DNA of 64,000 nucleotides from an uncultured Chloroflexia bacterium (GTDB lineage Bacteria; Chloroflexota; Limnocylindria; Limnocylindrales; CSP1-4): assembly GCA_963790955.1 (NCBI GenBank), contig CAWBQM010000004.1, positions 23,643-87,642 on the forward strand, read 5' to 3'. Both the position numbers and the translations under genes were made by a program. The notes beneath the pieces are model-generated. The model was not told where the DNA came from. It did no database searches and saw only the letters and a list, made by a program, of their open reading frames with translations. Every line of letters begins with the position of its first letter. The stretch's first letter is position 1. Below, piece after piece: positions 5,187-37,354 of this stretch.

Positions 5187-5196
5187 CGTCCCGCCG

Positions 5197-10106: not shown

Positions 10107-10137
10107 GCCCGAGTTTCGCAGGGCACCGGCTATCGAC

Positions 10138-18371: not shown

Positions 18372-18458
18372 AAGAACGAATAGCCATGCCGAAAGAAACA
18401 ACGAGCCGACAACCACAACATGCGGACGCCGTCGGCGTCGCTGTGCGAGATTGGACAT
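18372..18458 (-). pseudogene. 5' fragment (signal peptide) of the betagamma-crystallin-like gene, copy 1
   Basis: It encodes MSNLAQRRRRRPHVVVVGSLFLSAWLFVL. This is contiguous in frame with LVPSAAASCSG ... at 16931 if the IS is removed. Confidence 0.5.
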
Positions 18459-18925
18459 CCTCGAGTCCTCCTCCTGTGAAGGTCCACGGTCGTCGCACGC
18501 GAACTCGAGTATACTACGCGTGTCAAGAGTCACTGAACCTGCCAGTACAGTTGCTAACGACCTGTGGCTAGCTCCCCGCCCCCGGAGCTCTCGTCATGTT
18601 GCCACGGGAATCGCCCTTCCGAGATCCACGGACTCAGTTTGTGGCCTCTATACCCTTCTGCCTGACCCATTCATCGACGAGGCAAATGTCAAGGGCTCAG
18701 GTCGCGGACGCACGTGGACTTGAGATGGGAAACTGGTTCGATCGCAGTGTCGACGGCAGCCACTTCAGATCGGCCAGATGATCCCGACAGGCAGACGGAT
18801 CGTCCACCCCTCTCTGCCAGCCGCGATGGGATCAGCGCTCACCGAAGTCGCCACGGCGCGAGGTCAGGATCGGCAAAGCGGCCCTCTCTGGATGTCCGTC
18901 GCACGTCCTTCACGCCAAGTACACC

Positions 18926-19873: not shown

Positions 19874-19878
19874 CGAGG

Positions 19879-21847: not shown

Positions 21848-22149
21848 AGCCCAGAACTACGTCCCCACTGCGGGCAGAGGCTCGTCGAGTAGATTGAGCT
21901 CACGGTGTTGTCGAACCCCGTCGGCATCGTGTTGCGCGTGGTCGGCCCACACACATTGAACGAGGAGCCAGTCCCAAGCGAGCCTGTCCAGAGTACAAAC
22001 CCGTGCCCAGTGACGTTCGTCGACTTCATGCTTGAGATGTTGTTGTCGTACGGTGACGACAGGGAACCCATGCTCGTCCCGTAGTCCATCAGTAGCTCGG
22101 ATCCGGTCAGGTTCGTTCCGGTCCAGAATTGGCCTTCGTTCGCAGCCAA
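21823..22149 (-). CDS. divergent paralog of the betagamma-crystallin-like small protein (module 3), apparently lacking a signal peptide
   Basis: FVLWTGSLGTGSSFNVCGP and FDNTVSSIY are similar to FWENTGYGGNSVTYCYP and YNDTVSSFKW of the other copies. It sits in 50% GC DNA. Its 5' end abuts the truncated integrase at 22137, and its stop overlaps the probable ATPase start (21823). Confidence 0.4.
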   Translation of the reverse strand: MAANEGQFWTGTNLTGSELLMDYGTSMGSLSSPYDNNISSMKSTNVTGHGFVLWTGSLGTGSSFNVCGPTTRNTMPTGFDNTVSSIYSTSLCPQWGRSSGLCGWYRLR

Positions 22150-22505
22150 CGGAAGAACTGCTGGAGACTGCGGTAGGGGTTCGCCGCGGAGGCAGGACGG
22201 AGACGCGTGAGCTGGTCGGCGATGAAGGCGTCCACGTGCTCACGGCGGATCGCCGCCACGGTCCGGGGCATGCCCTCCTCGGCCAGGAACGCGTCGAAGC
22301 GGCCCACAGCGTCGAAGTAGGCGTGGATTGTGGCCGGCGTCCGGTCGCCCGCGTGGACGTGACGACGAAGGAGGCGCCGTTCGCGGCGAGGTCGTCGACT
22401 GCGGTAGACTCGGCCGCGCCGACCTGGCTGGGCGGCGTCGGATGGTCGTTGATCGAGCGTCTGGGCATCACCCACGTCGATCGACAGTTCGAGCGCCATG
22501 GTCAA
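22137..22505 (-). pseudogene. truncated, frameshifted tyrosine-integrase N-terminal fragment (diverged copy of int at 36232..37191)
   Basis: [30 protein letters not shown] ... followed, in another frame, by [32 protein letters not shown] ... SLQQFFRWL. This is about 85-90% aa identity to int residues 1-109, then it stops. Confidence 0.7.
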
Positions 22506-22554
22506 GCCGGGGAGGCCGGCGCCAGTTAGTGCTCTAACTGAGCGTGAACCTCGT

Positions 22555-22591
22555 GGGCCCGTAGCTCAACGGTAGAGCAAGTGACTCTTAA
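22555..22591 (+). other. partial tRNA-Lys copy (5' half up to the anticodon loop); att-like junction
   Basis: It is identical to nt 1-37 of the tRNA at 37280 (GGGCCCGTAGCTCAACGGTAGAGCAAGTGACTCTTAA). The 89-nt int-proximal spacer is also conserved. Confidence 0.7.
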
Positions 22592-23235
22592 GTCCGTGGC
22601 TCGAAACGCCATGGTCGTCGTTCGTGAGACGCCCGCGAAATCGGCCGAATCATTTGCTCTCCAACGCGTTCATGAGACCAGCGGCCGCGTCGACAACGAG
22701 GGGGCCTGCCGGCTCGCGCCGGCGGAGACTGGGCTCGAGCACGCGGTTATGTCTCGCCGGGGTCGTCCTGACTTGAGGGCCGAGGCGCTGGGCGAGATCG
22801 CTCTAGCTGGCGTGCATGCGCGGCCCGGGTGATCAATTCGCCCGACTGCGGATCGCCAGGACATCGCTGCTCGCGACGAAGCCACCATCGCCAGCCGTCG
22901 ACAACAATCTACGTCGGGTCGACGAAAAGTCCTCCCGCTCGGGCAACCTGCAATTCGCGCCTGCTTATCCGGAACAGGCTGTGGGGCGACCTCGACCGCG
23001 GCACCGATGGGCCGGAATTTGTGTGAGCCGGCCACGGACACCAGCTGCCAGTCGATCGCTGGGGGCGACGGCCGATTGGGCGGACCACTAGAAATTCCCC
23101 ATCTCGGTCCTGATCCAGGTCCGCGTCGCGCTCAATTGGTGCCACTTCCAGACTCTCATGTCCCAGTTGCCGTTGCCTTGCGGGAGGCCAAAGATCAGGA
23201 GCTGTCGGTAGCCGTCTCTGCTAGGCCTATGTACC

Positions 23236-24192
23236 TCAGGTTGGCCGTCGGCGGTTGACGACGATGGCGGCGCCGACGAGACCAACGAAACCAACCGACC
23301 CGAACAGCGCAATGTCGTACAAGATCCATTGGAGGGCTTCGGACTGCGGAATCCCCAACGCAACGAGCTCGTAGCCGCGGTCCCCCAGCCACTGGTCACT
23401 GCTTTCTTGAGGAGCCACGCCGGGTGGCACAAGCGCGAGTGCTGCCTCCTCGTTGAGAATGCTTCCATCGGGTGCGCGCCAGCCCTGGTTAGTTTGTACT
23501 GCAGCGACCAGGTTCGAGTTCTGGTCGCCGATCACAATCGCCGGTCGAGTCTGGATCCACGCTTGATGGGCCAGACTGGCTCCATAGTCAAGCGCGAGCA
23601 CGAGGGCGACCCCGACGATGAACGCTGGCAACGTGCGGCCCATGACTGCGCCAAGCAGCAATCCCACACAGAATCCCGCCAACGCTCGTCCGAGGACGAT
23701 CGGACCATGGAGCGTCATGTCATTGACGGCGGTATTGAGCCAGGGCTGGCGCGTCGCCTCCAGCCGGTCGGCCGCAAGCGCGGCGAACGTCACCACGACG
23801 CCCAGCAGCACCAGCACGGGCGCCACCTGGCGAGCCAGCCAGCGCAAGCGCGAGCCGGACAGGGACCACGCGGTCTGCGCGGTCCGGGCCTCGAGCTCGC
23901 GGCCGACGAGTGGCACGCTGCCGAGCAGCCCGACGAGGAACGGCAGGACGGCCATGGCCGCGAAGACCTTGCCCGCCTCGGACTCGTTGATCGTGGCGAA
24001 CGCGTTGACCGGGCCATAGCAGTCGCCGGCCTGATCGGGCCCGGCGCTGAGCCACTGCTGGAAGCAGCCGGCCGGGACGTGCACCGCGAGCAGGCGCTCG
24101 TTCACGAGCAGCGCGGCCACCCCGAGGACGAGCGCCGCGAGCGCGGCGGCGCCGACCTCGAAGCGATGCAGCTTGAGCGTGAGCCGGATCGA
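23236..24192 (-). CDS. ABC-2 type transporter permease (module 2)
   Basis: It starts at MLRSIRLTLKLHRFEV and is about 90% identical to module 1. The longer ORF 23236..25065 in the track is an alternative-frame artefact across the ATPase. Confidence 0.8.
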   Translation of the reverse strand, partial: SIRLTLKLHRFEVGAAALAALVLGVAALLVNERLLAVHVPAGCFQQWLSAGPDQAGDCYGPVNAFATINESEAGKVFAAMAVLPFLVGLLGSVPLVGRELEARTAQTAWSLSGSRLRWLARQVAPVLVLLGVVVTFAALAADRLEATRQPWLNTAVNDMTLHGPIVLGRALAGFCVGLLLGAVMGRTLPAFIVGVALVLALDYGASLAHQAWIQTRPAIVIGDQNSNLVAAVQTNQGWRAPDGSILNEEAALALVPPGVAPQESSDQWLGDRGYELVALGIPQSEALQWILYDIALFGSVGFVGLVGAAIVVNRRRPT

Positions 24193-24203
24193 GCGCAGCA
24201 TCG

Positions 24204-25157
24204 TCACGCGGTCTCCTCCCGGCGGCCGGTTCGCGCGGCCGCGAGATATCCGAGTACGACCTCCTCGAGCGTGGTCGGGCGGCCGATCGGGCCATCGCGC
24301 ACGAGGGCGAGCGGCTCCCCGCTCGGACCGGCGAAGACACCGATCGCCACCCGCCCGTCGAGCGTGGCCGCGTCGACCGTGCGGTGGTCGGCCCTGGCCG
24401 CCGCCGTGTCGACGTCGAGCAGCACCCGCCCGCCCGAGAGCACGACGAGTCGATCGCAGGCCTGCTCCACGTCGGTCACGATGTGCGACGAGAGGAGCGC
24501 GGTCGAGCCGTTGGCGCGGACGTCCTCGACGAGCACGGTCAGGAAGTCGCGCCGGGCCAGCGGATCGAGGTTCGCGAGCGGCTCGTCGAGCAGCAGCAGC
24601 GGGGCCCGGGTGCCGAGCGCAAGCGCCAGCGAGACCTGGGCCTGCTCGCCGCCCGACAGGTCGCCGATCGGCCGGTTCGCGGTCAGCCCGACCGCTCGGA
24701 TGCGCGCCAGCGCGTGCTGGCGGTCGAACGTCGGGCGGCTGACGCGGGCCAGATCGAGATGGTCGTCGATCGTGAGCCCGCGGTACAGCGCGCCGCCCTG
24801 GGGCACGTAGCCGACCGAGCCCACCGCCCGGGGACGATCGCGCCGGGGATCGATGCCGGTGACGAGCACCCTGCCCTCGTCCGGGCGTTCGAAGCCGAGG
24901 CATGCCCGGATGAGCGTCGACTTGCCGGCGCCGTTGGGGCCCACGAGGGCGGTGATCGAGCCGGCCGGCACGGCCAGCGACACGTCGCGGCACGCCCACG
25001 GCCGGTTGCGTCGGTAGCGGCGCCCGAAGCGCTCGGCGACGAGCGGTGGATCCTGCACGAGCCAAGTTCCTAATGCGCCACGATCCGGAGAGACCATCTC
25101 GGCCGCGGGGCCGCTGTCGGCCAGAAGCATTCTGCGTGTGTGACCGAAGGCCTGCAA
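24204..25157 (-). CDS. ABC transporter ATP-binding protein (module 2)
   Basis: Walker A, signature and Walker B are all intact. The C-terminal approximately 80-aa extension (SGEPLALVRDGPIGRPTTLEEVVLGYLAA) is conserved. Confidence 0.8.
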   Translation of the reverse strand: MQAFGHTRRMLLADSGPAAEMVSPDRGALGTWLVQDPPLVAERFGRRYRRNRPWACRDVSLAVPAGSITALVGPNGAGKSTLIRACLGFERPDEGRVLVTGIDPRRDRPRAVGSVGYVPQGGALYRGLTIDDHLDLARVSRPTFDRQHALARIRAVGLTANRPIGDLSGGEQAQVSLALALGTRAPLLLLDEPLANLDPLARRDFLTVLVEDVRANGSTALLSSHIVTDVEQACDRLVVLSGGRVLLDVDTAAARADHRTVDAATLDGRVAIGVFAGPSGEPLALVRDGPIGRPTTLEEVVLGYLAAARTGRREETA

Positions 25158-25359
25158 TCAGCCCCAGCGTGTCTGAGTGAACTCCCCCGAGGATGCCGCA
25201 TGAGTGCGTAGCGCGGTGGCTGCCGTAAGGGCCTGTAGCCGAATTCCTCCGATCGATCGCGCCGGATCTGGCCCGAGATGCCGCTCTCCGGCATTTGAGC
25301 CGCGCGGTGGATCGTGCTCGGCGAATTCGACCACAGACCCTAAGACTACCGCAGCAGGG

Positions 25360-25825
25360 TTACGTACTTGGACCCTGAGGACACGTTGATGTGTATGTCC
25401 ATTTGAAGGAACTGACTGTGTCGTTGTATGAACCGTAGTTGCTGGAGTATGTGTTTCCAGAGGCGCTGTATGGACTGGGAAGCTGGTTCGAATATCCAGC
25501 ATCACGGTATTGATGGATCCAGTAATGGCAGTTCGAGTTGTAGACATGGAAGCTGCTGAAGCAGTCGTTGAGATCGTATGGCCAATCCAGCCCCGATCCG
25601 GAGCAATGTGGGAATGCAACCTGGCTCAAGTCGCTCTCACCATACGGGTAGCAGTAGGTGACCGAGTTGCCGCCGTATCCTGTATTCTCCCAGAAAGTCA
25701 CAGATGCCCCGCTGCAAGAAGCGGTAGCGGAAGGCACAAGAACGAATAGCCATGCTGGAAAGAAGCAACGACATTACAAGCACAACATACGGACGCCTTC
25801 GGCGTCCTTGTGCGACATTGGCCAT
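25360..25825 (-). pseudogene. betagamma-crystallin-like small secreted protein, copy 2, with +1 frameshift between signal peptide and mature domain
   Basis: The signal peptide MANVAQGRRRRPYVVLVMSLLLSSMAIRS is in one frame (25637..25825). The mature domain VPSATASCSGASVTFWENTGYGG ... (25360..25737) is in the +1 frame. Compared with the copy 1 remnant there is one extra nucleotide (atgcTggaaag versus atgccgaaag). Confidence 0.6.
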
Positions 25826-26374
25826 CCTCGAGTCCTCCTCTTGTGAACGCCGAGGGCCACCATCGTTCCCGCAAACTCGAGTTTAGTACGAGTGTCAATC
25901 GTCAGTGGAGAGGTTGTCTCGATGCTCCGTGAATTAGTCAGGGCCAACTGCTCAGTGAATTTGTCAGTCAGAGAGGGACCTGGCTGCTCGGGACGACTGG
26001 CTCGTCGGCCTCCGGGGCCCACTTGGTCGGAGCACGGGCTCCGGCGCCCAGCGGCGCGACATCGGGGAGGCGCGACGACCGGATGCGCGGGCACTCCCGC
26101 GACCCGGCCGTCCACGTCGGGCCCGTCGCTCGTCGATGCCGAGCCGGCGGAGGCCGGGTGATCCGCTCGCGGTCCCGGGATCACGGGTCGATAGCCGTCG
26201 CCAGCTCATCGGCGATGCGCGCGAGGACCTGATCTCCGAGGACACGTGCGATCCCCACCGGCGCCGTCCGTGGTGCGCCCCAGGTCGATCTGGGCGCCGT
26301 CGACGCGTTCGTCCGCCAGCCCCCGCACCGCCACGCCTTTGGTTTGGGCTGCGCTGCACGCGGGAGCTGTGACG

Positions 26375-26695
26375 ATGACGACACGACGATCACACACCTC
26401 GACGACCCCTCAAAGGCGTCTGACGACCGACGACCCCGAGCGCGCTGAGCGCTCGCTCCGTGGCCGCATCGGGGCGTATCGGCTCCATGCGACCCACGAC
26501 TCGCGCGAGACGTCGCGGCCCGGCCGCCTGGCGTTCCTGGCCTCGTTCGAGCGGCTGGTCGATCCCGACCGGGTCCTGCCCGAGGCCGAGCGCACCAGAC
26601 GGGCGGCCCACGCCCGCTCGGCCCATTTTGCACGTCTGGCCTATCTGTCGGCCCGGGCACGACGGAAACGGGCACGGCGTCGACGCGGACCGTGA
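26375..26695 (+). CDS. hypothetical small basic protein upstream of Replic_Relax (copy A)
   Basis: An approximately 106-aa protein (MTTRRSHT ... LAFLASFERLVDPDRVLPEAERTRRAAHARSAHFARLAYL ...). Its stop overlaps the next gene's start (GTGA). The opposite-strand ORF is a P/R/G-rich artefact. Confidence 0.3.
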   Translation: MTTRRSHTSTTPQRRLTTDDPERAERSLRGRIGAYRLHATHDSRETSRPGRLAFLASFERLVDPDRVLPEAERTRRAAHARSAHFARLAYLSARARRKRARRRRGP

Positions 26696-27515
26696 GGGCA
26701 GTCGCCCGCCGGCCGCTGGTGCGGTCAGGTCCCGGTGTCTCGGCCTGGACCGCCCTGCCCGAGCGCGACCGCCAGCTGCTGCTGTGGCTGATCAGCGGCG
26801 ATGTGGTGACGGCCGAGCTCGCGGCGCTCCTCGCGTACGGTCATCTCCGGGTCGCCCAGCGGCGCCTGGCGCGTCTGGTCGAGTACGGCCTGGTCTCGGG
26901 CTTCTGGGCGGCCAACCGCCAGCGACCTCGTGGCCGCTACGCGTATGCCCTGGCCAAGACCGCCCGGGTCCAGCTCGAGCAGCTCGTGTGGCCGCAGGGC
27001 CGCCCGGGGCTCGCCGGTGGTGGCATCGTGACGGTCTCGCCGGTCATCCACGGGCTCGCCACGCACGACCTGTTCGCGGTGTTCCTGGCGGCCTCGGATC
27101 CAGCCGGTGAGGTGGGGCTCGCGGGCTGGGTGCCCGAGCGCCCGCTCGTGCGGCTCACGAGCTATGGTGACCTGCGGCCCGACGCCTTGGCGGTGGTTCG
27201 CTCGGGCGAGCGCCTGATCGTGCTGTTCATCGAACGTGATCTCGGCACCGAGCGCGGTGGCGTGCTCAGCGACAAGGTGCGCGGCTACGATCGACTGTAC
27301 CGCCAGCGCGTCGCCGCCCATCCGCTCCACGTCGGCTTCGTGGTCGAGAGCCACCGCCGCGCGTACGCGATCCGCCGGGTCCTCGCCCGAGCCGCCGACG
27401 AGACCCGCCTCGGGGTGTGGGTGACGACCGAGGCCGATCTGCGCGCCGATCCCTATGGCTGTCTCTGGGTATCGCCCGCGATCGATCCGGTGGCCACGGC
27501 CGATCTGGCGGCCAA
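26692..27515 (+). pseudogene. replication-relaxation (Replic_Relax) family protein, copy A, 3'-truncated by the IS30-family insertion
   Basis: LPERDRQLLLWLISGDVVTAELAALL ... RVAQRRLARLVEYGLVSGF matches the Replic_Relax N-terminal wHTH. It is identical to copy B up to aa ~274 and then diverges at 27515. Confidence 0.7.
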
Positions 27516-29060
27516 CGCGACGGTCGGGCCGTAGCTGTCGCCCTTGCTCCCGACCGAGCTCACCGCGTCGACCTCGGCGAGCCGCTCGGTGTACCGGATC
27601 GCCAGGTACTGGGCGGATTCCATCGGTCGTCGCAACACCTCGACATGGAGGTGCTGCGATGGGCGTTCGAGAGCGGCGGTTGGCGATCCAGGCAATGCGA
27701 GGCCAGATCTGGTCGCCAGGCAGGCCATCGATCGCGCGGCGTGAAGACCGTGTCCGGTTCTGGAAGGCGATCGCCCGAGGCGTCACCACGGAGGAGGCCG
27801 CTGCCGAGGCGAGGGTCTCACCTTCGGTCGGAGCGCGCTGGTTCAGGCAGGCTGGCGGCATGCCGTCCCTGTCGCTCCTCCCGATCTCCGTTCGCTACCT
27901 GACGTTCGCCGAACGGGAGGAGGTCGCGATCCTGCACGCGCAGCAGCGCGGGGTGCGCGAGATCGGCCGCCGCCTGGGTCGCTCACCCTCGACGATCTCC
28001 CGCGAGCTGCGGCGCAACGCGTCGACCCGCGGCTACCAGGTGTCGTATCGGGCGACGACGGCCCAGTGGCACGCCGAGCGGCGTGCCAGCCGGCCCAAGG
28101 TCGCCAAGCTCGCCGCCAACCCTGCGCTCCGCGACTACGTCCAAGACCGGCTCGCCGGGATGATCAAGCGGCCCGACGGAGTCCACATTGCCGGCCCCAC
28201 CGTGCGCTTCATCGGCCGCCGTCACGGGCGCCGAGCCGACCGACGCTGGGCGAGGGCGTGGAGTCCCGAGCAGATCTCGCACCGGCTGCGCATCGACTTC
28301 CCCGATGATGCATCGATGCGGGTCTCGCCCGAGGCGATCTACCAGGCGCTCTACGTCCAGGGCCGCGGCGCCCTGCGGCGCGAGCTCGTCTCGTGCCTGC
28401 GCACCGGGCGGGCGCTGCGCGTCCCCCGTGCCCGTACCGCGGGGCGCGGCAAGGGCTTCGTGACCCCGGAGCTCCTGATCAGCGAGCGGCCCGCCGAGGT
28501 CGAAGACCGCGCCGTGCCCGGCCACTGGGAGGGCGACCTCATCATCGGCCTCAACGGCTCATCGATCGGGACACTGGTCGAGCGCACCACCCGGTTCACG
28601 CTGCTGCTGCACCTGCCGCCCATGGACGGCCACGGCAGCCAGGTGCGGCTCAAGAACGGTCCGGCTACAGCTGGCCATGGCGCCGAGGCGGTACGGGACG
28701 CGATCGCCGATGCCATCGGCACCATGCCCGACCAGCTCCGGCGGTCGCTGACCTGGGACCAGGGAGCGGAGATGGCCCAGCACGTCCAGCTGCGGATCGA
28801 CACCGGCGTCGAGATCTACTTCTGCGACCCGCACAGCCCCTGGCAGCGCGGCACCAACGAGAACACCAACGGTCTGCTGCGGCAGTACTTCCCGAAGGGC
28901 ACCGACCTTGCCCGGCACTCCCGAGCCGATCTCGACGCCGTCGCCCTCGCGCTCAACACCAGGCCCCGCAAGACGCTGGTCTGGAAGACACCCGCCGAGG
29001 CGCTCGAGGAACTCCTACACTCGGCGTGACAAGGCAGTGTTGCGACGACTGGTTGAGCCC
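27515..29060 (+). mobile_element. IS30-family insertion sequence (boundaries approximate)
   Basis: The left boundary is where identity to copy B of the repeat breaks. The right boundary is about 30 nt past the transposase stop. Confidence 0.55.
27659..29029 (+). CDS. IS30-family transposase
   Basis: An HTH plus a DDE domain with IS30 hallmarks (HWEGDLIIG ... DQGAEM ... YFCDPHSPWQRGTNENTNGLLRQYFPKGTDL). The ORF track begins upstream at 27455; the start is uncertain. Confidence 0.85.
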   Translation: MGVRERRLAIQAMRGQIWSPGRPSIARREDRVRFWKAIARGVTTEEAAAEARVSPSVGARWFRQAGGMPSLSLLPISVRYLTFAEREEVAILHAQQRGVREIGRRLGRSPSTISRELRRNASTRGYQVSYRATTAQWHAERRASRPKVAKLAANPALRDYVQDRLAGMIKRPDGVHIAGPTVRFIGRRHGRRADRRWARAWSPEQISHRLRIDFPDDASMRVSPEAIYQALYVQGRGALRRELVSCLRTGRALRVPRARTAGRGKGFVTPELLISERPAEVEDRAVPGHWEGDLIIGLNGSSIGTLVERTTRFTLLLHLPPMDGHGSQVRLKNGPATAGHGAEAVRDAIADAIGTMPDQLRRSLTWDQGAEMAQHVQLRIDTGVEIYFCDPHSPWQRGTNENTNGLLRQYFPKGTDLARHSRADLDAVALALNTRPRKTLVWKTPAEALEELLHSA

Positions 29061-29172
29061 GCCTTGGACGCCCCGGTCGCAGTGGTGGACAGGCCCGTCG
29101 AGGCCGGGACCGCGGGCTCCAGATCGCCATCTCGAGCGCGTCGAGGGCGAGCTCGGCGCGCAGGCTGCTCGA

Positions 29173-30001
29173 TCACCCGCCAGCCGACGATGGCCTGCTG
29201 AAGGCGTCGATGATGAACGCGGTGTAGGCGAAGCCCGACCAGGTCGAGACGTAGGTGAGATCGGCCACCCACAGGCGGTTCGGGGCAGGGGCGGCGAAGG
29301 TGCGGTTGACGAGATCAGCCGGGCGCTGCTCGACCGTCGCCGGCCTGGTGGTCCGGATCCGCTTGGTGCGCGCCGCACCCTGCAGCCCGACGAGCTTCAT
29401 CGCGCGGGCGGGCGACTGGTCGCGGCCGGCGTCGACGTCTGGCGCCGGAGCGCCTTCCACACCTTGCGGATCCCGTACACGCCATAGTTCGCCCGGTGGA
29501 CCCGGCCGATGACGTCGGCCGAGGGTGGCGTCGGACACCGAGCGGGCCGAGGGCAGGCGGCTCCGGGCGGCGTAGTAGGACGACGGGGCGACCTGCAGCT
29601 CGGCAGATCGGCTCGACCCCGAACGAACGCTTGTGCTGGTCGATGAACGGGATCATCGAGCCGGTGGCGGTCGAGCTCCCCCCCGAAGAAAGCCGCCGCC
29701 GCCTTCAGGATCTCGTTCGACCGGCGGAGCTCACGGTTCTCGCGCTCGAGCTCCTTCATCCGCGCCGCTCCTCGCTCGTGAGCCCGCCCAGCTCGCCGCG
29801 GTCGATGCGCGCCTGGCGGACCCACTGGCGGACCGACTCGGGTCCGATGCCCAGCTGGTGAGCGACCCTCGTGATCGCGCCGTGGCGCTCGCCTTCGGCG
29901 GCTGCCTGGTCGACCAGTCGGACGGCGCGCTCCTTCAGCTCGGGTGGATAGCGACGCGGTGACGGACGGTGCTGACTCTCTCCCATGACTCCATTCTTCA
30001 A
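29173..30001 (-). mobile_element. IS3-family element remnant (OrfA plus 3'-truncated OrfB)
   Basis: OrfA has an HTH (MKNGVMGESQHRPSPRRYPPELKERAVRLV) and a leucine-zipper end (MKELERENRELRRSNEILKAAAAFF). The OrfB N-terminus (DLVNRTFAAPAPNRLWVADLTYVSTWSGFAYTAFIIDAFSR) ends at about 29173 and lacks most of the DDE domain. Confidence 0.7.
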
Positions 30002-30144
30002 GAAATGGAGTCTCCACCGAAGTCAGGACGGTTCAAACGCCTCACGCTTGGCGTAGTCCGGCTGCAGTCCTCGGCGACCCATCGGGGATGGGGTGCCTTC
30101 TCAACCCCATCTTCCCAGTTCGGGTGGGAACCCAATTCGTCGTC

Positions 30145-30510
30145 TCAGCGCCCCCTCCAACGGCACGTCATCCGTGGAGCCGAACTAGGGCACTCAGTGC
30201 CACCGCATCGGACGTCGTTGTCACCGGTCGGGACGGTGGTCGTCAAGACGAGCGTCCCGTCCGGCCCCATCTGGTAGCGCTTCCCGTCGGGGCCACCAGC
30301 GTAATTCTCTCTGCTCTGATCAATGACTGTCGTGGGGGACACCTGATCGGAGACCCCCTGAATGGCAGGCCCACCTGTCATCGGGGCGGCCTGGAGGGCA
30401 TCGACATGTAGGGCGGAGGTCGAGCGCGAGAGCTGTGGATACGCCGCGGCAGCCGCCACTAGTACGGCCAGGCCCAAGGCGCCAATGATCGTGAGAAGGG
30501 CACGTCTCAT
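30145..30510 (-). CDS. small secreted hypothetical protein
   Basis: Signal peptide MRRALLTIIGALGLAVLVAAAAA, then a Gly/Pro/Thr-rich domain of about 95 aa. It is in a 55% GC patch. Confidence 0.35.
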   Translation of the reverse strand: MRRALLTIIGALGLAVLVAAAAAYPQLSRSTSALHVDALQAAPMTGGPAIQGVSDQVSPTTVIDQSRENYAGGPDGKRYQMGPDGTLVLTTTVPTGDNDVRCGGTECPSSAPRMTCRWRGR

Positions 30511-30529
30511 TTTCGGGCTCCCGATATTG

Positions 30530-31453
30530 CTAGTAACTGGAGGTGTAGCTCCACAGCGTTTCCTGATCATCCAGGTGGCCATTGCCGTCAGCGTCGTACA
30601 GCGACTTGACCACGTATTTGTAATGGTCACTTGGGTAGATCCACTGAGTGTTCACGAACGCAGTGTCCTGGGTGGTCCAATACCAAGTGCCTGACCTCAG
30701 GTATTGTGAGCGAAGATCGATATCAGCCGCGCTGTCCGCGTTTCCATTCTGATCGTGAGTGTCGTGTGTCTCCGTGCCCCACCACGCATAGGTTCCATAG
30801 GCGGTGGCCCAGTTACGATCGCGAGTGGTGCAGTCGTAGGCTTCCCCAAGCGTCTTGTCTCGAATGCAATACTCCCACTTGGCAACGCCACTGACCGTAG
30901 TTGCAAAGATCTTCAGGCGGTACTGATCGCCCACCCGGAACGTCCCGCCGTACCAAGTTGCGAGGTAGATCAGACCGCTAGCCAAATCTGAGGCGGTGTA
31001 CCAGAAATGGAGCTTTCCGTCATTTGGAATCCCACCTCCAGAAACCCCGCAACCGCCGGTAACGCTGCATTCTCCGTACCCGATCTGGACGATCTGGTGC
31101 GTGTCAGTCTGGTTGTATTGGATGGTAACCGCAGGCACCAGAGAGACCGAGCCCACTCCGGAGTACTGGGTGCATGGGGTGACGTATCGGAGATCCACAT
31201 CGGCGATTGCGCCGCTGATGCCTGGCGCGGACTTGTAGCGGTCGACGAACGTCCAATCGACATAGTGGCCGCTGGCGGTCGTGGTAGCGCAGTTCTTGTA
31301 GTACGCGGCAGCGACCGTCCCGGCGCTTGTATGGAATGCTCCCACCAGACCCAGAACCACCACGATAACTCGGGCGAGGTTCTTCCCGGCCCGACGATGG
31401 TGAGACGCTCGTGGAGACCGGCTGGTTCCAAATCGCGGTCCCAAATCGGACAT
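30530..31453 (-). CDS. secreted hypothetical protein, Trp/Tyr/Thr-rich, with Ca-binding-like DADGNGHLDDQE motif
   Basis: N-terminal signal/anchor (LARVIVVVLGLVGAFHTSAGTVAAAYY) and 14 Trp. The C-terminal motif is D-x-D-x-N-G-x-x-D. It lies in a low-GC patch inside the island. Confidence 0.55.
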   Translation of the reverse strand: MSDLGPRFGTSRSPRASHHRRAGKNLARVIVVVLGLVGAFHTSAGTVAAAYYKNCATTTASGHYVDWTFVDRYKSAPGISGAIADVDLRYVTPCTQYSGVGSVSLVPAVTIQYNQTDTHQIVQIGYGECSVTGGCGVSGGGIPNDGKLHFWYTASDLASGLIYLATWYGGTFRVGDQYRLKIFATTVSGVAKWEYCIRDKTLGEAYDCTTRDRNWATAYGTYAWWGTETHDTHDQNGNADSAADIDLRSQYLRSGTWYWTTQDTAFVNTQWIYPSDHYKYVVKSLYDADGNGHLDDQETLWSYTSSY

Positions 31454-32325
31454 GGTTCCCTCCCCAGTGCCGGGGTCGGCCGTTAAGCTAGCCAGTCGGC
31501 CCTTCGCCGCAGTCCGTTCGGGCCTCCGAGCAGGCTTGCCGCCGGTACGAGCAGTCTCGCAGTTCTACACCTGCGATCAAGTGGCAATTGGCACATCTCT
31601 GTACCCGGTCCATTTTGGCCAGGCCTTCCTGTCCCGGCGATCTGGCCTGTCGCGCCTCCAGCTCGTAGGTCGAGAAAGAAGGAGCGTCACCCCCAATCCC
31701 CAAGGCGGAGGGCGGCTATCCCACCACCGTCGGCCACGGCCGGGTGGACGAGATCTCTCAGTTCCGGCCCGTCGAGTTTCGCGGTCTCGGCGTTGACCTC
31801 GTGGGTGAGGAGCACCGGGTTTGGTGGGCCGCTCCTCGCACTGTTTGGTCTCCCGGACGTTGGCGCCGACGGTTAGGTTCACGCGCTGCGAGGACCTTGA
31901 ACGACACCGTGCAGTCATGAGCCAAGGCGATCCAGACTGCACGCGGGGGCCGCAGCTGATCGCTTACTGGGATCCTGACGGAGGGTGTTCCTGCATCGTC
32001 GCGACTGACGGAGACGAGCTCGTTCTCGTTCCTCTTGGCGCTGTCGTCGGGCTGCTTGCCCGGGCGTCCTTGGAGCAGCCCGGCTCGTGTGGGGCAGGTG
32101 GGCCGTCGAACCCGAGATAGAGGTCGGAGCACGGGGGCGGCGGCAGAACGACGCTCCGCTCTTCCTCCACGGGGGCGGCGGCCAGGACGACGCTCGCTCT
32201 TCCTCCGCGATCCCCGGCCGGGCGCTCGACCGCCTTGGGGCGAGGCTGATGCAACCTGGGCTCCGGGCGAGCTCGGGGCGAGGCAATTCAGGAGGCGTGG
32301 TCGCGTTCTGATATGGAAGGACTCG

Positions 32326-33408
32326 TCAAGTCGGGGGCTGCGGGGCATGGCCGGGGTCAGGTTCCTGGCGACGGCCGGTCACTCTGACATGCGCGGATCG
32401 ACTGGGGTCGCTGCCGCATGACAGTGAGCCGGACGTCGAGGTGCCTCGAACTAGTGTCCCGAAATCGCTGGTCGCTGGATGCTTGCGGATCGCCTTGGCC
32501 AGGATCTCGTCGGCGGTCTTGACCCAGGCGAACGGGGTCGCGCCGGCGTTCCACTGGTCGGTGAACGCGTCGATCGTCGGCGACAAGCTCCTTGACGCTC
32601 CCGAAGCTGCCCCGGCGGAGCGCCTGGCGGGTCAGGAGGCCGAACCACGTCTCGACCTGGTTCATCCAGGACGCCGAGGTCGGCGTGAAATGGAACGTGA
32701 ACCGCGTGTGCCCGCGCAGCCAGGCCTGGACGTCCGGGGTCTGTGTGGGTGCTGACGTTGTCGAGCACGACGTGGACCTTGCCCTTCGGATAGGTCCGGG
32801 CGACGAGCCGCAGGAAGCCCGAGCGCCTGGATCTGGGTCTTCTCGTCAAGGGAGAGCACAATCGCCCGCTCGGGCGGGGACAAATAGAGCCCGACGACGT
32901 CACGGACCTTGGCCTCGAGCTCGGGGTCGGTGCTCCACTTGAACGTCTCGGTCCGGTGGGGCTGGAGGCCGGCCTCGCTCCAGATCCGCTGGACCGTTCT
33001 CGTGCTCATGCCGACCTCCCGGGCGAGCCGTCGCGAACTCCAGTGGGAGAGGCCGGCGGGCGGCTCGGACAGCGTGAGGGCGATGACCCGATCTCGGTCA
33101 GTCCGCGAGTAGATCCGTTCGCGGCCGGGTCGCGGCGCGTCGCGCAGCCCGGCCAGGCGGTCGCGCTCGAACCGTCGGCGCCAGAGCAGGACCGTCATCG
33201 GCGCAACTCGCAGCTCGGTCGCGATCCGCGTGTTCGGCTGGCCCTCGACCGCCCGCAAGACGATCCGGGCCCGAGTCGCCAGGCGTTGTTCGGTTCGACC
33301 CGCCCGGGAGAGCGACCGGAGCGTCGCCAGCTCAGCCTCATCAACAACCAGCGGAGGAGCAGGATGGTTCGGCATACCCAGCATCGTAGCTGCGATCTGA
33401 CCAAACAT
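32326..33408 (-). pseudogene. IS630-family transposase, multiply frameshifted
   Basis: The N-terminal HTH and LSPPERAIVLSLDEKTQIQAL are at 32662..33408. FLRLVARTYPKGKVHVVLDNVSTH is in a second frame and NQVETWFGLLTRQALRRGSF in a third. The C-terminal region around FIRRWNE (PFAWVKTADEIL) is at 32326..32586. Confidence 0.75.
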
Positions 33409-33714
33409 CTAGCTTTCTCCGCGCCGAGACACTAGGGGCGCGAGTCGGAATCGCATAGAACAGTCGAGGGTTCTCGGCGCTGCTGTCCCGCTCGACCATG
33501 CCCCGCCTCGTGTCCGATCAGGCGGCCGTCGGCGTCAACTGCTGCCCGGCGGCCCAGACGAAGCCGGCCAGCTTCCGCGCGACGACGATGCTCCCACCGC
33601 CCGATGCCGCCAGACGTACACACATTCCATTGCATTCGGCCGGCTCCGGTCGTAGGGTGAGGCCCTGGCCGTCTCGACAGAGGCGGCGGCGAGCCGCGAA
33701 CTTCCGATGTTGGC

Positions 33715-35184
33715 GCCCAGCGGCGCGACATCGGGGAGGCGCGACGACCGGATGCGCGGGCACTCCCGCGACCCGGCCGTCCACGTCGGGCCCGTCGCTC
33801 GTCGATGCCGAGCCGGCGGAGGCCGGGTGATCCGCTCGCGGTCCCGGGATCACGGGTCGATAGCCGTCGCCAGCTCATCGGCGATGCGCGCGAGGACCTG
33901 ATCTCCGAGGACACGTGCGATCCCCACCGGCGCCGTCCGTGGTGCGCCCCAGGTCGATCTGGGCGCCGTCGACGCGTTCGTCCGCCAGCCCCCGCACCGC
34001 CACGCCTTTGGTTTGGGCTGCGCTGCACGCGGGAGCTGTGACGATGACGACACGACGATCACACACCTCGACGACCCCTCAAAGGCGTCTGACGACCGAC
34101 GACCCCGAGCGCGCTGAGCGCTCGCTCCGTGGCCGCATCGGGGCGTATCGGCTCCATGCGACCCACGACTCGCGCGAGACGTCGCGGCCCGGCCGCCTGG
34201 CGTTCCTGGCCTCGTTCGAGCGGCTGGTCGATCCCGACCGGGTCCTGCCCGAGGCCGAGCGCACCAGACGGGCGGCCCACGCCCGCTCGGCCCATTTTGC
34301 ACGTCTGGCCTATCTGTCGGCCCGGGCACGACGGAAACGGGCACGGCGTCGACGCGGACCGTGAGGGCAGTCGCCCGCCGGCCGCTGGTGCGGTCAGGTC
34401 CCGGTGTCTCGGCCTGGACCGCCCTGCCCGAGCGCGACCGCCAGCTGCTGCTGTGGCTGATCAGCGGCGATGTGGTGACGGCCGAGCTCGCGGCGCTCCT
34501 CGCGTACGGTCATCTCCGGGTCGCCCAGCGGCGCCTGGCGCGTCTGGTCGAGTACGGCCTGGTCTCGGGCTTCTGGGCGGCCAACCGCCAGCGACCTCGT
34601 GGCCGCTACGCGTATGCCCTGGCCAAGACCGCCCGGGTCCAGCTCGAGCAGCTCGTGTGGCCGCAGGGCCGCCCGGGGCTCGCCGGTGGTGGCATCGTGA
34701 CGGTCTCGCCGGTCATCCACGGGCTCGCCACGCACGACCTGTTCGCGGTGTTCCTGGCGGCCTCGGATCCAGCCGGTGAGGTGGGGCTCGCGGGCTGGGT
34801 GCCCGAGCGCCCGCTCGTGCGGCTCACGAGCTATGGTGACCTGCGGCCCGACGCCTTGGCGGTGGTTCGCTCGGGCGAGCGCCTGATCGTGCTGTTCATC
34901 GAACGTGATCTCGGCACCGAGCGCGGTGGCGTGCTCAGCGACAAGGTGCGCGGCTACGATCGACTGTACCGCCAGCGCGTCGCCGCCCATCCGCTCCACG
35001 TCGGCTTCGTGGTCGAGAGCCACCGCCGCGCGTACGCGATCCGCCGGGTCCTCGCCCGAGCCGCCGACGAGACCCGCCTCGGGGTGTGGGTGACGACCGA
35101 GGCCGATCTGCGCGCCGATCCCTACGGCTGTCTCTGGGTATCGCCCGCGATCGATCCGGTGGCCACGGCCGATCTGGCGGCCAA
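33715..35184. repeat. 1.47-kb direct repeat copy B (identical to 26046..27515)
   Basis: See copy A. The offset of 7669 nt is constant across all shared ORFs. Confidence 0.8.
34044..34364 (+). CDS. hypothetical small basic protein upstream of Replic_Relax (copy B)
   Basis: Identical to the 26375..26695 ORF. Confidence 0.3.
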   Translation: MTTRRSHTSTTPQRRLTTDDPERAERSLRGRIGAYRLHATHDSRETSRPGRLAFLASFERLVDPDRVLPEAERTRRAAHARSAHFARLAYLSARARRKRARRRRGP

Positions 35185-35317
35185 CGCGCGCGTCGAGCCC
35201 GACGCCTGGCCGCTCCTCGGACCCGGCTGTCTCACGGTGCCCGACGCGCTCGAGCGCCTCGACGAGCGCCTGCTCGACGAGATCGAGCCGCTGTCCTTCT
35301 ACCACCCCCTGATCTGA
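34361..35317 (+). CDS. replication-relaxation (Replic_Relax) family protein, full-length copy
   Basis: A 318-aa protein with the N-terminal wHTH (RDRQLLLWL ... RRLARLVEYGLV) and a C-terminal region that continues beyond the point where copy A is cut. Confidence 0.75.
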   Translation: MRAVARRPLVRSGPGVSAWTALPERDRQLLLWLISGDVVTAELAALLAYGHLRVAQRRLARLVEYGLVSGFWAANRQRPRGRYAYALAKTARVQLEQLVWPQGRPGLAGGGIVTVSPVIHGLATHDLFAVFLAASDPAGEVGLAGWVPERPLVRLTSYGDLRPDALAVVRSGERLIVLFIERDLGTERGGVLSDKVRGYDRLYRQRVAAHPLHVGFVVESHRRAYAIRRVLARAADETRLGVWVTTEADLRADPYGCLWVSPAIDPVATADLAANARVEPDAWPLLGPGCLTVPDALERLDERLLDEIEPLSFYHPLI

Positions 35318-35606
35318 GCCCTGTCGCGATACCGAGCGCATCCCTGGCACCTGCCTGTGCACGAGCCGCGACCAGGTCGCGACCACGACGCGACGTACGA
35401 GACGACACCTTGGGCACGTTCCGCGCGCACGAATCGCCAGACTGGGACATCGCTTACGCGATTCGCGCAAATCGGCGCGCCGGGCCGACCTCATGAAGTC
35501 AGGTTGCCAGGCCGAGCCGGATGACGAGCACTCCCACGGAGGCAGAGTCCTTGGCGCGGAGCCGTACGCGTGCCGCTTGCGCCTCGGACGTATCAGAGCG
35601 CTGGAG

Positions 35607-35888
35607 TCAGCGTACGAGCGACGTCGTGACCCTGAGACCGGCCGCCTCGAAGACCTCCTCCTCTGGCACCCCTAGGAGCGACCAGACGCCGATGTGCTCG
35701 TCGATCTTGGGCCAGACGACGACCATGCCGTCGCTCTGGATCTCGAAGGCCTCACGGTCGGCCTTCGATGCCCGCGACAGGCGCTCCGACCATGCAGTCG
35801 GAGCCGAGAGCTCGCGGCCATCCTCCAGGGCGAACGTGATGAGCTCATCCGACACGCGGACGTCCTTCACGACTGCCGGCTGGATCAT
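35607..35888 (-). CDS. DUF2442-family protein
   Basis: MIQPAVVKDVRVSDELITFALEDGRELSAPTAWSERLSRASKADREAFEI matches the DUF2442 pattern. Its start overlaps the stop of the upstream DUF4160 gene. Confidence 0.6.
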   Translation of the reverse strand: MIQPAVVKDVRVSDELITFALEDGRELSAPTAWSERLSRASKADREAFEIQSDGMVVVWPKIDEHIGVWSLLGVPEEEVFEAAGLRVTTSLVR

Positions 35889-36151
35889 TGTCGCACTGCC
35901 TCCCGTGCCCGCACGCACTCCTCGTCCCATCGAGCGATGAGGAGTGCCTGATTGTCCTCGATCGCTCGACGCATCTTTGCGATGTCGTGCTGAGTGTACC
36001 TACCGGCTGTCACTAGCTCGATCGGGTCGATCCAGAACTTGGCCGCAGCGCGGCGATCTCCGCCTCTCCCAACATGGACGTGCCGAGGCTCGCGACAGTC
36101 GAACATCACCATGTAGAAGACGAACCCGGCAACCTCAATGAGGGTTGGCAT
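35885..36151 (-). CDS. DUF4160-family protein
   Basis: MPTLIEVAGFVFYMVMFDCREPRHVHVGRGGDRRAAAKFWIDPIEL ... LLIARWDE fits the DUF4160 consensus (MPTI ... FYSNEHxPPHVHV ... AKFWL). Confidence 0.7.
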   Translation of the reverse strand: MPTLIEVAGFVFYMVMFDCREPRHVHVGRGGDRRAAAKFWIDPIELVTAGRYTQHDIAKMRRAIEDNQALLIARWDEECVRAREAVRQ

Positions 36152-36231
36152 CTCACTACCGTCCCATGCGGTCGGTCCGTAGGCTCACGGGTTGATCTCG
36201 TATGCAACGGTGTACGCGGCTCGCATCGAAG

Positions 36232-37191
36232 TCAGAGCCGGTCCGCCGGGCTCAGGCGCCGGTGGGCCGCGAGCGCCCGTTCCGTGGCGGCGCTTGCGCC
36301 GTAGCGGCTGAGCATCTGGCGGGAGCGCCAGCCGGCGAGGCGCATGAGATCGCCCTCGGCGCCGCCACCTGCGAGCCATTGATGGGCGAACGTGTGGCGG
36401 AACAGGTGTGGGTGGACCGGGCCGATGCCAGCCTCGACCGCGCGGCGTCGAAGGACCTGGGCGATGCCCGTGCTGCCCAGGCGACCCTTGCGCCCGAGCC
36501 ACAACCACGGCGTCGCTGCGTCGGGGTGCTGGGCCCGCACCCGCACGTAGCGATCGAGCGCCTGGGCGGCCTTGCGACCGAACGCGATGGCGCGCGGTCG
36601 CGCGCCCTTGCCGGTCACCGACAGCGTTTCCGTCTCCCAGTCGACGTCGTCCACCGCAAGGCCGGAGATCTCGCCGAGGCGCATGCCAGTGTCGATCAGA
36701 AGCAGCGCGATCGCCCGATCGCGGCGCTCTTCGAAGCCCTGGCCGGCGCAGGCCGCGATGAGCTTGCGCAGCTCGTCCTCGCGGAGGACCTCGGGCGGCG
36801 CCTCGGGAATCGTGGGCGGACGCATCCGGCTCATCGGCGACTCGCGGATCTCGCCCTCGTCGGTGAGCCAGCGGAAGAACTGCTGGAGGCTGCGGTAGCG
36901 GTTCGCGGCCGAGGCCGGGCGAAGCCGCGTGAGCTGGTCGGCGATGAACGCCTCGACGTGCTCAGGACGGATCGCCGCCACGGTCCGAGGCATGCCTTGC
37001 CCGGCCAAGAATGCGTCGAAGCGCGCCACGGCATCGAGATAGGCGTGGATCGTGGCCGGCGCCCGATTGCCCGCTCGCAGGTGGCGCCGGAACGAGGCGG
37101 CGTTCGCTGCGAGGTCACCGACTGCGGTAGACTCGGCCGCGCCGACCGCGCTGGGCGGCGTCGGATGGTCGTTGGTCGAGCGTCTGGGCAT
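36232..37191 (-). CDS. tyrosine recombinase / phage-type integrase
   Basis: An N-terminal SAM-like domain plus a catalytic domain with R ... HxxR ... Y ([13 protein letters not shown] ... [18 protein letters not shown] ... [17 protein letters not shown]). It is 89 nt from the tRNA-Lys 5' end on the opposite strand. Confidence 0.9.
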
Positions 37192-37279
37192 GTCGCAATC
37201 ATCGACTGTTCGAGCGCCATGGTCAAGCTGGGATGGCCGAAATCGCCAGTTAGTTGCTCTAACTGAGCGTGAATCTCGT

Positions 37280-37354
37280 GGGCCCGTAGCTCAACGGTAG
37301 AGCAAGTGACTCTTAATCACTAGGTTCAGGGTTCGAATCCCTGCGGGCTCACCA
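37280..37354 (+). tRNA. tRNA-Lys (anticodon CTT)
   Basis: The cloverleaf can be folded by hand: acceptor GGGCCCG/CGGGCTC (one G-U pair), D arm GCTC-AACGGTA-GAGC, anticodon arm AGTGA-CTCTTAA-TCACT, variable loop AGGTT, T arm CAGGG-TTCGAAT-CCCTG, discriminator A, and an encoded CCA. Confidence 0.85.

Follow-up and report, generated by a model that had tools for sequence, protein, structure and literature searches.

Small plasmid-like elements that carry a replication gene and integrate at tRNA genes are well known from hosts of the high-GC Gram-positive type: the actinomycete elements pSAM2 and SLP1 carry the 3′ part of the tRNA, together with an excisionase, an FtsK-like transfer gene and an integrase larger than the one considered here. 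The 3′ part also predominates among the islands mapped by Islander, 3,760 of which have a displaced 3′ fragment as compared to 159 of 3,919 with a displaced 5′ fragment; the same survey counts 2,083 islands with an attachment site of the element (attP) centred on the anticodon and 125 tandem arrays (PMC4383910). Recombination of the 5′-distal kind was called ‘considerably less frequent’ with reference to Zhao & Williams 2002 (PMC6563490), and islands displacing the 5′ part are said to have a ‘reversed target orientation’ (Zhao & Williams 2002, as cited in PMC6563490 and PMC1635311). Xer-like, tRNA-specific recombinases operate in the tycheposons of Prochlorococcus, where serial integration leaves fragmented integrases and partial tRNAs behind (bioRxiv 10.1101/2020.12.28.424599), and simple integrases without an arm-binding domain, e.g. 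that of Brujita, are a recognized minority on mobile elements (Lunt & Hatfull 2016, summarized in PMC8138268). Here we analyse a stretch of 64,000 nucleotides (nt) from an uncultured Chloroflexia bacterium, referred to as the window, in which a 14.7-kb island occupies the gene for tRNA-Lys(CTT).

Our interpretation, to which we assign a probability of roughly 85%, is that an integrated element supplying the 5′ half of this tRNA gene adjoins the stump of an earlier element. The resident element extends from 22592 to 37316 and belongs to a tRNA-targeting family of Chloroflexota and Actinomycetota.

Results

The direct repeat ends with the anticodon loop of tRNA-Lys(CTT)

ARAGORN finds one tRNA gene in the window, tRNA-Lys(CTT) at 37280–37354 on the plus strand. 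Self-BLAST, a repeat search and pairwise alignment delimit a direct repeat (22144–22591 and 36866–37316) identical at 86.5% of 453 aligned positions (E = 1.8e-149), whose copies are 14.7 kb apart and whose similarity may extend weakly to the left as far as ~22122. Both copies comprise integrase codons 1 to ~113, a spacer and tRNA nt 1–37. The tRNA part is 100% identical between 22555–22591 and 37280–37316, i.e. two copies in the window with none expected by chance, and the 3′ half of the tRNA is present once. Identity breaks directly after CTCTTAA, that is tRNA positions 31–37, which make up the 7-nt anticodon loop (22585–22591 and 37310–37316). A first-pass annotation of this DNA, made from the letters alone, had placed the end of the repeat in the anticodon loop, and the exact alignment, stopping at 22591 and 37316, bears this out; the diverged and frameshifted integrase start, spacer and tRNA nt 1–37 that it described on the left are present as well. 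On the right, its intact integrase gene (36232–37191) and intact tRNA-Lys both stand, whereas the distance of 89 nt given between them has to be corrected to 88 nt (37192–37279).

Judged by the features that define islands in Islander (PMC4383910), the interval contains a tyrosine integrase gene (36232–37191), and the intact tRNA gene (37280–37354) is matched by a cognate fragment in the same orientation that reaches the end of the gene (22555–22591). The configuration is that of a 5′ fragment located 14.7 kb upstream of the 5′ end of the intact tRNA, and the integrase-proximal arm bears nt 1–37, as expected of an element that supplies the 5′ part. The left junction (attL) hence shows the displaced 5′ half as an exact 37-nt match on the plus strand, and the right junction (attR) shows the intact gene, which is 100% identical to the tRNA of locus L081. 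In L081, the tRNA is preceded by a native upstream region unrelated to the element, and in single-occupancy relatives the sequence upstream of the displaced tRNA copy is likewise unrelated to the element. As read from these alignments, nt 1–37 of tRNA-Lys(CTT) are contributed by the element and nt 38–75 by the chromosome. Beyond the two known copies, no third tRNA fragment or older junction was detected in the window by motif scans, by searches with 37-nt and 38-nt patterns that tolerated as many as 3 mismatches, or by blastn-short queries of the tRNA together with the spacer and of the distal arm.

The integrase is Xer-like and lacks an arm-binding domain

The integrase gene (36232–37191, minus strand) is transcribed away from tRNA-Lys, starting 88 nt from the tRNA 5′ end, and encodes an intact protein of 319 residues. 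Pfam assigns a Phage_integrase match (9.8e-27) and SAM-like N-terminal domains, together covering residues 33–113 and 135–302, the first ~30 residues being of low complexity, and the catalytic residues R, K, H-x-x-R, W and Y are all present in the translation. The enzyme thus has a core-binding and a catalytic domain and no arm-binding domain, which, in a protein encoded by a mobile element, is the make-up of the simple recombinases (PMC8138268). XerC, XerD and XerA are its best NCBIfam profile matches, with scores less than half of the cutoffs: 148.9 and 139.3 bits as compared to the equivalog cutoffs of 335 and 330 for XerC and XerD. XerA (5hxy), aligned over residues 43–290, is the best relative of solved structure, and Brujita gp33 (5vfz) is found as a distant match among the PDB sequences (E = 4e-7). 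The nearest annotated relatives are actinophage integrases with 35–39% identity, and the best plasmid matches reach 31%. Genomes of relatives contain several copies of the integrase, every copy beside a different tRNA. Because of the low XerC/XerD scores and these multiple tRNA-linked copies per genome, the enzyme is not the host Xer, and since the copies are bounded by repeats of tRNA halves, its function is element integration rather than dif resolution.

Annotated plasmids and phages were considered as a source of a free attP and rejected: the matches reach 31% (plasmids) and 35–39% (phages), and Rfam detected no partial tRNA beside the related phage integrase genes examined. Exact-protein look-up retrieved the integrase from one further contig, a Logan contig of 1.9 kb that breaks at the repeat and is therefore uninformative, and returned no record for the DUF4260 neighbour; one sequencing run that contains the integrase is ERR11718636.

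Related integrases target many tRNA genes and repeat either half

A scan of one genome per species yielded 79 loci with related integrases, mostly in metagenome-assembled genomes of Chloroflexota and Actinomycetota. Linkage to tRNA genes was counted in the 66 loci with enough upstream sequence, and repeats were sought within 10-kb flanks. In 55 of the 66, a tRNA gene lies 65–370 bp upstream of the integrase start; many different tRNAs are used, and the two genes are divergent, as in the window, in 30 cases and co-directional in 25. A second, partial tRNA copy on the integrase side was found in 12 loci. All eight divergent loci among them repeat the 5′ half of the tRNA (nt 1 to 37–43), 3–11 kb beyond the integrase, and in all four of the co-directional loci the repeated piece is the 3′ half (nt 31–33 to the end); on the opposite strand, there are only 13-nt chance matches. 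The 5′ repeats run up to the final base of the anticodon loop, as does the repeat in the window, or 2–4 nt farther (ten independent junctions from other genomes), and the 3′ repeats start with the first loop base. Since this 7-nt loop is the sole segment common to 5′ and 3′ repeats, 37310–37316 probably represents the overlap region within which crossover occurs. Polarity apparently switches repeatedly among related integrases in a neighbour-joining tree, which is rough and whose sample is limited by the 10-kb flanks, and within one integrase clade tRNA-Arg(TCT) is used in both orientations.

A metagenome scan with the 37-nt tRNA half returned 14 loci. Two of them, L085 and L088, are 98.6% identical over 281 nt comprising the native upstream region and the 5′ half and split 3 nt past the loop; beyond the split, L088 continues as an intact tRNA and L085 as foreign DNA, with the junction CTCTTAA|G that is also seen in the window. 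We read these loci as the occupied and the empty state of a tRNA-Lys(CTT) site in another organism. An empty site of this kind was what the first-pass annotation had proposed to look for, and its model, with the tRNA 5′ half carried on attP and the anticodon loop as the place of crossover, finds support in this pair, in the repeats of the relatives and in the arm motifs from 22592 onwards (see below).

Several loci show further variations. In L031 (3481–3542 and 9829–9904), where a family integrase sits on the 3′ side of the tRNA, a 5′ half is found displaced by 6.3 kb in the upstream direction; the situation is reversed in L067 (1548–1606 and 9842–9915), in which it is a 3′ half that is displaced, at a distance of 8.2 kb. 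Both thus appear to have elements on either side of one tRNA gene. No second integrase of the same family was found on the opposite flank of the tRNA in L031 or L067, where a different recombinase may be involved. In the small tRNA-Val element of L028, a C-terminal integrase fragment (12406–12614) downstream of the intact integrase has 75% identity to 10671–10881, a further sign of serial occupancy or of internal rearrangement.

The attP arms appear to keep their layout regardless of the tRNA half

The integrase-proximal arm of attP (P arm, 37192–37279) contains blocks that are conserved between the clades Lys(CTT), Lys(TTT) and His. A promoter scan of this spacer gave one site as compared to 0.0 expected, a sigma-70-like integrase promoter on the minus strand (TTGACC at 37226–37221, 17-nt spacing, GATGAT at 37203–37198), from the position of which the integrase mRNA would be leaderless or nearly so. 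The arm has GCGCCATGGTC at 37214–37224 and two direct units of ~25 nt with the pattern GAATCAYnTGCTsTAA...GAGC, at about 37196–37227 and 37248–37275; the second unit abuts the tRNA and includes TGCTCTAACTGAGC at 37255–37268. In the delimited elements, the proximal arm bears the block GAGCGCYRTGGTCAAG ~103 nt from the crossover, overlapping the sigma-70-like integrase promoter.

The distal arm (P′) of the resident element (22592–22665, plus strand) shares its motifs with the far arms of relatives. It has ACGCCATGGTC at 22606–22616, 14 nt past the crossover, followed at 22647–22660 by GAATCATTTGCTCT, which is the third occurrence of the arm unit. The motif ACGCYRTGGTC is likewise present at +14 in L050, L015 and L053, and variants of it in L025, L079, L022, L008 and L085; the 11-mer of the distal arm occurs twice in the entire window. 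Since the arm motifs follow just past 22592 at the offsets typical of the family, element DNA starts at this position. In L030 and L061, which are of the 3′ type, the arms are arranged relative to the integrase in the same way and the tRNA segment has opposite polarity, and by this comparison the arms of the family appear to be fixed while either tRNA half is used.

The best-conserved part of the spacer is the 25 nt upstream of the tRNA, and the proximal arm (37192–37279) would have to hold the promoter of the tRNA gene. By eye, no convincing −10/−35 pair for the tRNA could be recognized in the spacer alignment, and TAnnnT boxes that are visible in the native upstream regions of relatives are missing from the element spacers. 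The unit adjoining the tRNA (37255–37268, and 22530–22543 in the left copy) contains a small dyad, GCTC-TAACT-GAGC, which takes the form of a perfect inverted repeat of 7 bp (CGTGCTC...GAGCACG) in the Lys(TTT) elements, suggestive of a dimeric DNA-binding protein or of a hairpin in the pre-tRNA leader. The idea that the arm unit is a copy of a core half-site or a decayed tRNA 3′ half was dismissed; it fits the Lys elements and fails for the Val, Ala and Arg elements.

The left copy is the probable remnant of an earlier element

At the left end, codons 1 to ~113 of a second integrase gene are preserved as a frameshifted and truncated remnant (22144–22468, minus strand), for which tblastn yields residues 1–34 (88% identity) and 37–109 (85%) in different frames, the shift being caused by a 1-nt deletion at nt 98. 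Next to it lies the older copy of the spacer (22469–22554), 90–98% identical to the right copy with the maximum in the 25 nt adjoining the tRNA, where the left copy has C at 22549 and the right copy T at 37274; both ~25-nt units are kept. The promoter boxes of the right copy fit the family consensus, whereas the −10 box of the left copy is mutated. Differences between the two integrase copies are distributed 9/9/29 over codon positions 1/2/3, with 21 synonymous as compared to 16 nonsynonymous codon changes. From this third-position bias, it follows that most of the divergence arose under purifying selection and that the left copy once was a separate, functional integrase.

The length of the far-end repeat points in the same direction. 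It measures 42–51 nt, i.e. the tRNA half alone, in six single-occupancy relatives and is intermediate in L015 (82 nt, reaching 44 nt into the spacer). At a tRNA-Lys(CTT) gene in L050, it amounts to 248 nt including the spacer and the first ~24 integrase codons, with 93.5% identity to the locus' own copy, and L050 can be regarded on this sequence as an independent instance of the pattern seen in the window. Together, repeat length, L050 and codon-position bias support the proposal of the first-pass annotation that a second, older and related element had been resident. The right-hand element is the newer one, because an incoming element lands between the tRNA half of the resident and the chromosomal 3′ half. 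Upon excision of the newer element, the stump would serve as the 5′ part and upstream region of the gene; its tRNA half and the adjoining 25 nt are 98–100% identical to those of the new copy. A body of the older element to the left of 22137 was sought and rejected, as no homologues of the integrase, Replic_Relax or the small basic protein were found in the window outside the island. Tandem arrays are defined by a second member with its own integrase and tRNA gene fragment; here, there is a stump of ~113 codons with a tRNA half, and the site therefore is the remnant of an array rather than an intact one.

A model for two successive integrations

These observations can be combined into the following model. 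The integrase would bind the arms of the anticodon stem as its core binding site and swap strands inside the 7-nt loop, the cleavage positions being deduced from the repeats. In the 5′-type clade, attP would bear tRNA nt 1–37 behind the 88-nt arm with the integrase promoter and the two ~25-nt units. Integration would rebuild the tRNA gene from the element's 5′ half and the chromosomal 3′ half and, because the element supplies the 5′ half, the gene would be transcribed from element DNA. The previous supplier of the 5′ half would be shifted to the far end of the element. In the present case, the displaced piece would be the beginning of the integrase gene, the spacer and the 5′ half belonging to a related earlier element with ~13% divergence, and hence the site entered by the present element would not have been vacant. 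The greater part of the older element would then have been deleted, and the resident element would subsequently have been inflated and scrambled by insertions of the IS30, IS3 and IS630 types and by a recent internal duplication of 1.5 kb.

The island is a mosaic with a small recurring core

Only three genes recur across the delimited relatives, namely those for the integrase, a small basic protein and Replic_Relax. The small basic protein (33915–34364, plus strand) has a core of ~90 residues conserved in the family; among 13 repeat-delimited elements, 7, with both polarities represented, encode a homologue, and the alignment has 22 invariant columns. It has no match in Pfam or NCBIfam and is a candidate DNA-binding or excision factor. 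The original copy of the Replic_Relax gene (replication-relaxation family, PF13814, 1.2e-17) follows at 34361–35317 on the plus strand; this gene is found in 4 of the 13 delimited elements, with homologues in L015, L050 and L053. Both genes are covered by a direct duplication of 1,488 bp (26043–27530 and 33712–35199, plus strand, 99.66% identity). The left duplicate is the secondary copy, because homology to L050 passes the boundary of the duplication in the right copy only, and its Replic_Relax frame (26692–27534, 1e-17) is truncated beside an IS30-type transposase gene.

The remaining genes of the island are variable cargo or later additions. A DUF2442/DUF4160 pair (35607–35930 and 35885–36151, minus strand; PF10387, 1.5e-10, and PF13711, 4e-14) lies downstream of the integrase gene, and the three are also adjacent on the independent Logan contig L080. 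The IS30-family transposase frame (27455–29029, plus strand) matches HTH_38 (3e-18) and, below the Pfam cutoff (27.4 as compared to 32.6 bits), rve (4.1e-06); its true start is probably internal. An IS3-like remnant (29397–30017, minus strand) has a match to HTH_21 only (3.5e-05, 24.4 bits, below the Pfam cutoff of 28.1), and an IS630-like remnant (32662–33408, minus strand) retains helix-turn-helix matches (HTH_32, 1.1e-13; HTH_23, 2.5e-12) without a catalytic domain. Two further open reading frames (ORFs) near the IS3-like and IS630-like remnants have no assignment. At the left, an ABC module comprises a permease-like gene (23236–24207) and an ATPase gene (24204–25157; ABC_tran, 3.7e-28), both on the minus strand. 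It is paralogous to genes at 14521–16341 outside the island, with 87.6% nucleotide identity over 2018 nt to 14521–16529 and 94% amino acid identity of the permease. The ABC permease and ATPase genes, the two Replic_Relax genes, the IS30-type transposase gene, the IS3-like and IS630-like helix-turn-helix remnants and the DUF4160/DUF2442 pair were recovered here, which confirms the cargo list of the first-pass annotation.

A scan of 20 ORFs of the island brought up no FtsK-type or other transfer domain. FtsK/SpoIIIE transfer and Rep functions beside the integrase and excisionase genes are the hallmark of actinomycete integrative and conjugative elements (AICEs), and of these functions only Replic_Relax was found in the scan. 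The element looks like a small integrative, possibly mobilizable, plasmid-like unit that was inflated by insertion sequences, and its 14.7 kb are a mosaic reworked by them rather than a clean cargo set.

The surroundings of the island are rearranged

The ABC permease/ATPase module and its upstream region are present twice in the window (14521–16930 plus 18367–18535, and 23238–25907, 87.6–95.8% nucleotide identity). In the outside copy, the upstream region is split by an intact transposase gene of the IS256/Mutator family (17054–18298, 1.6e-139), and a third, more diverged ABC module (18926–21847) abuts the integrase stump. Further to the left, 11993–14371 (minus strand) encodes a protein of 792 residues with PD40 and RHS-repeat matches, within which ~174-nt tandem repeats occur (13141–14281). 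Between its gene and the core genes lies a stretch (10001–12000) with a GC content of 0.60–0.61, as compared to ~0.70–0.72 nearby, and with short ORFs only, which lack Pfam matches. To the right of the tRNA gene, separate ORFs at 38953–46338 match pieces of alpha-L-rhamnosidase (N-terminal, 6-hairpin and C-terminal domains) and are probably one or two disrupted rhamnosidase genes; they are adjoined by an intact rhamnosidase gene for 956 residues (47378–50248) and a DeoR regulator.

The tRNA-Lys(CTT) gene lies 0.6–3.2 kb upstream of, and co-oriented with, carA-carB in L081, L087, L088, L050 and L002, three of which are native sites and two occupied; in the window, carB/carA are at 1532–6537. 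An ORF at 59145–60065 (minus strand) has a homologue with 66% amino acid identity in L091 (599–1009), 1.1 kb upstream of tRNA-Lys. This single locus and the carAB linkage hint that ~6.5–59 kb of the window could be accessory or rearranged DNA gathered at the tRNA locus. Large inverted repeats able to explain an inversion were not found by self-BLAST of the window. The search for an orthologous empty site by synteny was given up: the window is rearranged, the DNA between tRNA and carA is unconserved among relatives, and the ancestral junctions could not be reconstructed.

Discussion

Several observations weigh against an integrated element next to the stump of an earlier one, or against its simplest form. 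The older element is represented by a stump of 450 nt only, to the left of which the window has no other tRNA fragment, no other part of an integrase gene and no cargo gene of the family. The tRNA gene is inverted and 30 kb away from carAB relative to five relatives, and the history of this rearranged locus is therefore more complex than two clean integrations. Neither an excised circle nor a repaired-site junction was found, none of the 14 metagenome loci having the spacer of the window, and the 1.9-kb fragment is the only other contig with the exact integrase. A consensus scan found no sigma-70-type promoter on the tRNA strand of the spacer. The sequence probably stems from a metagenome assembly. 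Finally, remnants of insertion sequences, a truncated duplicate of the module for replication and the paralogue of genes located outside are all found in the island, which may be a fixed, decaying remnant with some content that is not original cargo.

The main rival builds on the last point: the element would be real but by now an immobile fossil, its integrase being kept by chance or for another role. We regard this as a serious possibility, somewhat short of even odds. The IS30, IS3-like and IS630-like sequences, the truncated Replic_Relax copy and the 1488-nt duplication within the island would be expected of a fossil, as would a length of 14.7 kb that exceeds the 3–11 kb of the delimited relatives, the rearrangement relative to carAB and the lack of an attP or empty-site junction among the 14 metagenome loci. 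Against it, the integrase frame is full length with every catalytic residue, its right-hand promoter fits the family consensus where the −10 box of the left copy has decayed, the 37-nt tRNA half is perfect at both junctions, the motifs of the P′ arm are intact, and so is one module of small basic protein and Replic_Relax genes.

A second alternative concerns the stump, which might be an in-place duplicate of the same element, generated by tandem duplication or by integration of identical copies, that decayed where it stands. The left copy is indeed closer to the integrase of the window (86.5%) than to that of any relative (70–74%), and the tRNA half with the adjoining 25 nt is nearly identical between the copies. 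A drifting pseudogene would not be expected, though, to show the 9/9/29 bias over codon positions and an excess of synonymous (21) over nonsynonymous (16) changes, and the true recent duplicate inside the island is 99.66% identical, which makes this alternative improbable. Ordinary segmental duplication or rearrangement of the chromosomal integrase–tRNA region, i.e. without site-specific integration, draws on the rearranged, insertion sequence-rich surroundings and the other large paralogous segments in the window; it is very unlikely given a boundary exactly at the loop end, with ten junctions elsewhere there or 2–4 nt beyond, family-specific arm motifs directly after the boundary, linkage of the integrase family to many different tRNAs in 55 of 66 loci, and the empty and occupied pair L085/L088. 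An assembly artefact, that is a collapsed or chimeric repeat, is hardly credible even for a probable metagenome assembly in which short-read contigs break at the repeat: the differences between the copies are codon-structured, and L050 independently shows a like architecture. With ~13% of positions differing and indels besides, the copies exclude the assembly duplication that the first-pass annotation had raised for the left copy.

With integration beside an earlier element as the preferred reading, the boundaries of the element are defined to the base pair (22592–37316), and the truncated integrase can be explained as the scar that a previous occupant left. Half of the sole tRNA-Lys(CTT) gene in the window derives from the element, on whose DNA its expression would depend. 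The locus is a clear case of the uncommon 5′-replacing geometry, which accounts for ~4% of the islands mapped by Islander, in a poorly studied phylum. This geometry and tandem occupancy are already documented; the integrase family is undescribed. What may be new is the frequency of the 5′ geometry within this family and the constant layout of the attP arms despite differing tRNA polarity. Tentatively, and without yet counting it as the probable outcome, we propose an undescribed family of Xer-like integrases lacking an arm-binding domain, with fixed attP arms and a captured tRNA segment of either polarity, the fixed layout consisting, on one side of the crossover, of a repeated unit overlapped by the integrase promoter at a distance of ~100 nt and, opposite, of a second motif at 14 nt. 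If this is true, about half of the family replaces the 5′ half of the target tRNA and takes over its transcription, the stem-loop of the anticodon, being nearly palindromic, serves as a core that is neutral to orientation, and the usual 3′ bias of tRNA islands would reflect promoter supply rather than the mechanism of the recombinase. The family would provide a good system to learn how a simple Xer-like enzyme integrates at tRNA genes and why most elements favour the 3′ half. Such elements would escape island finders that presuppose a 3′ fragment or filter out Xer-like recombinases.

Comparison with known systems

As in the described 5′-displacing islands, the tyrosine integrase gene is internal, the intact tRNA is at one end, a 5′ fragment in the same orientation is at the other, and the 5′ part of the gene is restored by the element. 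The island differs from them in its small, Xer-like integrase of an undescribed family in Chloroflexota and Actinomycetota, and in that the 5′ geometry is common in this family, where 30 of 55 loci linked to a tRNA and 8 of 12 elements with delimited ends show it. The anticodon-loop (‘A’) class of tRNA integration sites (Williams 2002) shares the crossover on the anticodon loop, with a symmetric stem flanking the 7-nt overlap; most of its described members, however, carry the 3′ part of the tRNA, whereas the family studied here uses either half with the same arms.

XerC, XerD and XerA have the same two-domain architecture and catalytic residues and give the best profile and structure matches, from which the integrase is set apart by its score (149 as compared to 335 bits) and by several tRNA-linked copies per genome. 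With Brujita-type integrases it has in common that a core-binding plus catalytic enzyme without an arm-binding domain drives integration, and actinophage relatives reach 35–39% identity. Similarity to gp33 is distant (E = 4e-7), however, the element is not a phage, and its attP arms with three conserved units suggest a control that goes beyond a minimal, directionless site. From pSAM2 and SLP1, the island differs in that no FtsK/Tra domain was found in its scanned ORFs. The tycheposons, compared here with their published description, resemble this system by behaviour only: they use Xer-like, tRNA-specific recombinases, repeated integration pushes older elements inward and leaves fragments, and the cargo is variable. 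They belong to other phyla and presumably to another lineage of integrases, and where they have a helicase/primase, the replication module of the window consists of Replic_Relax and the small basic protein.

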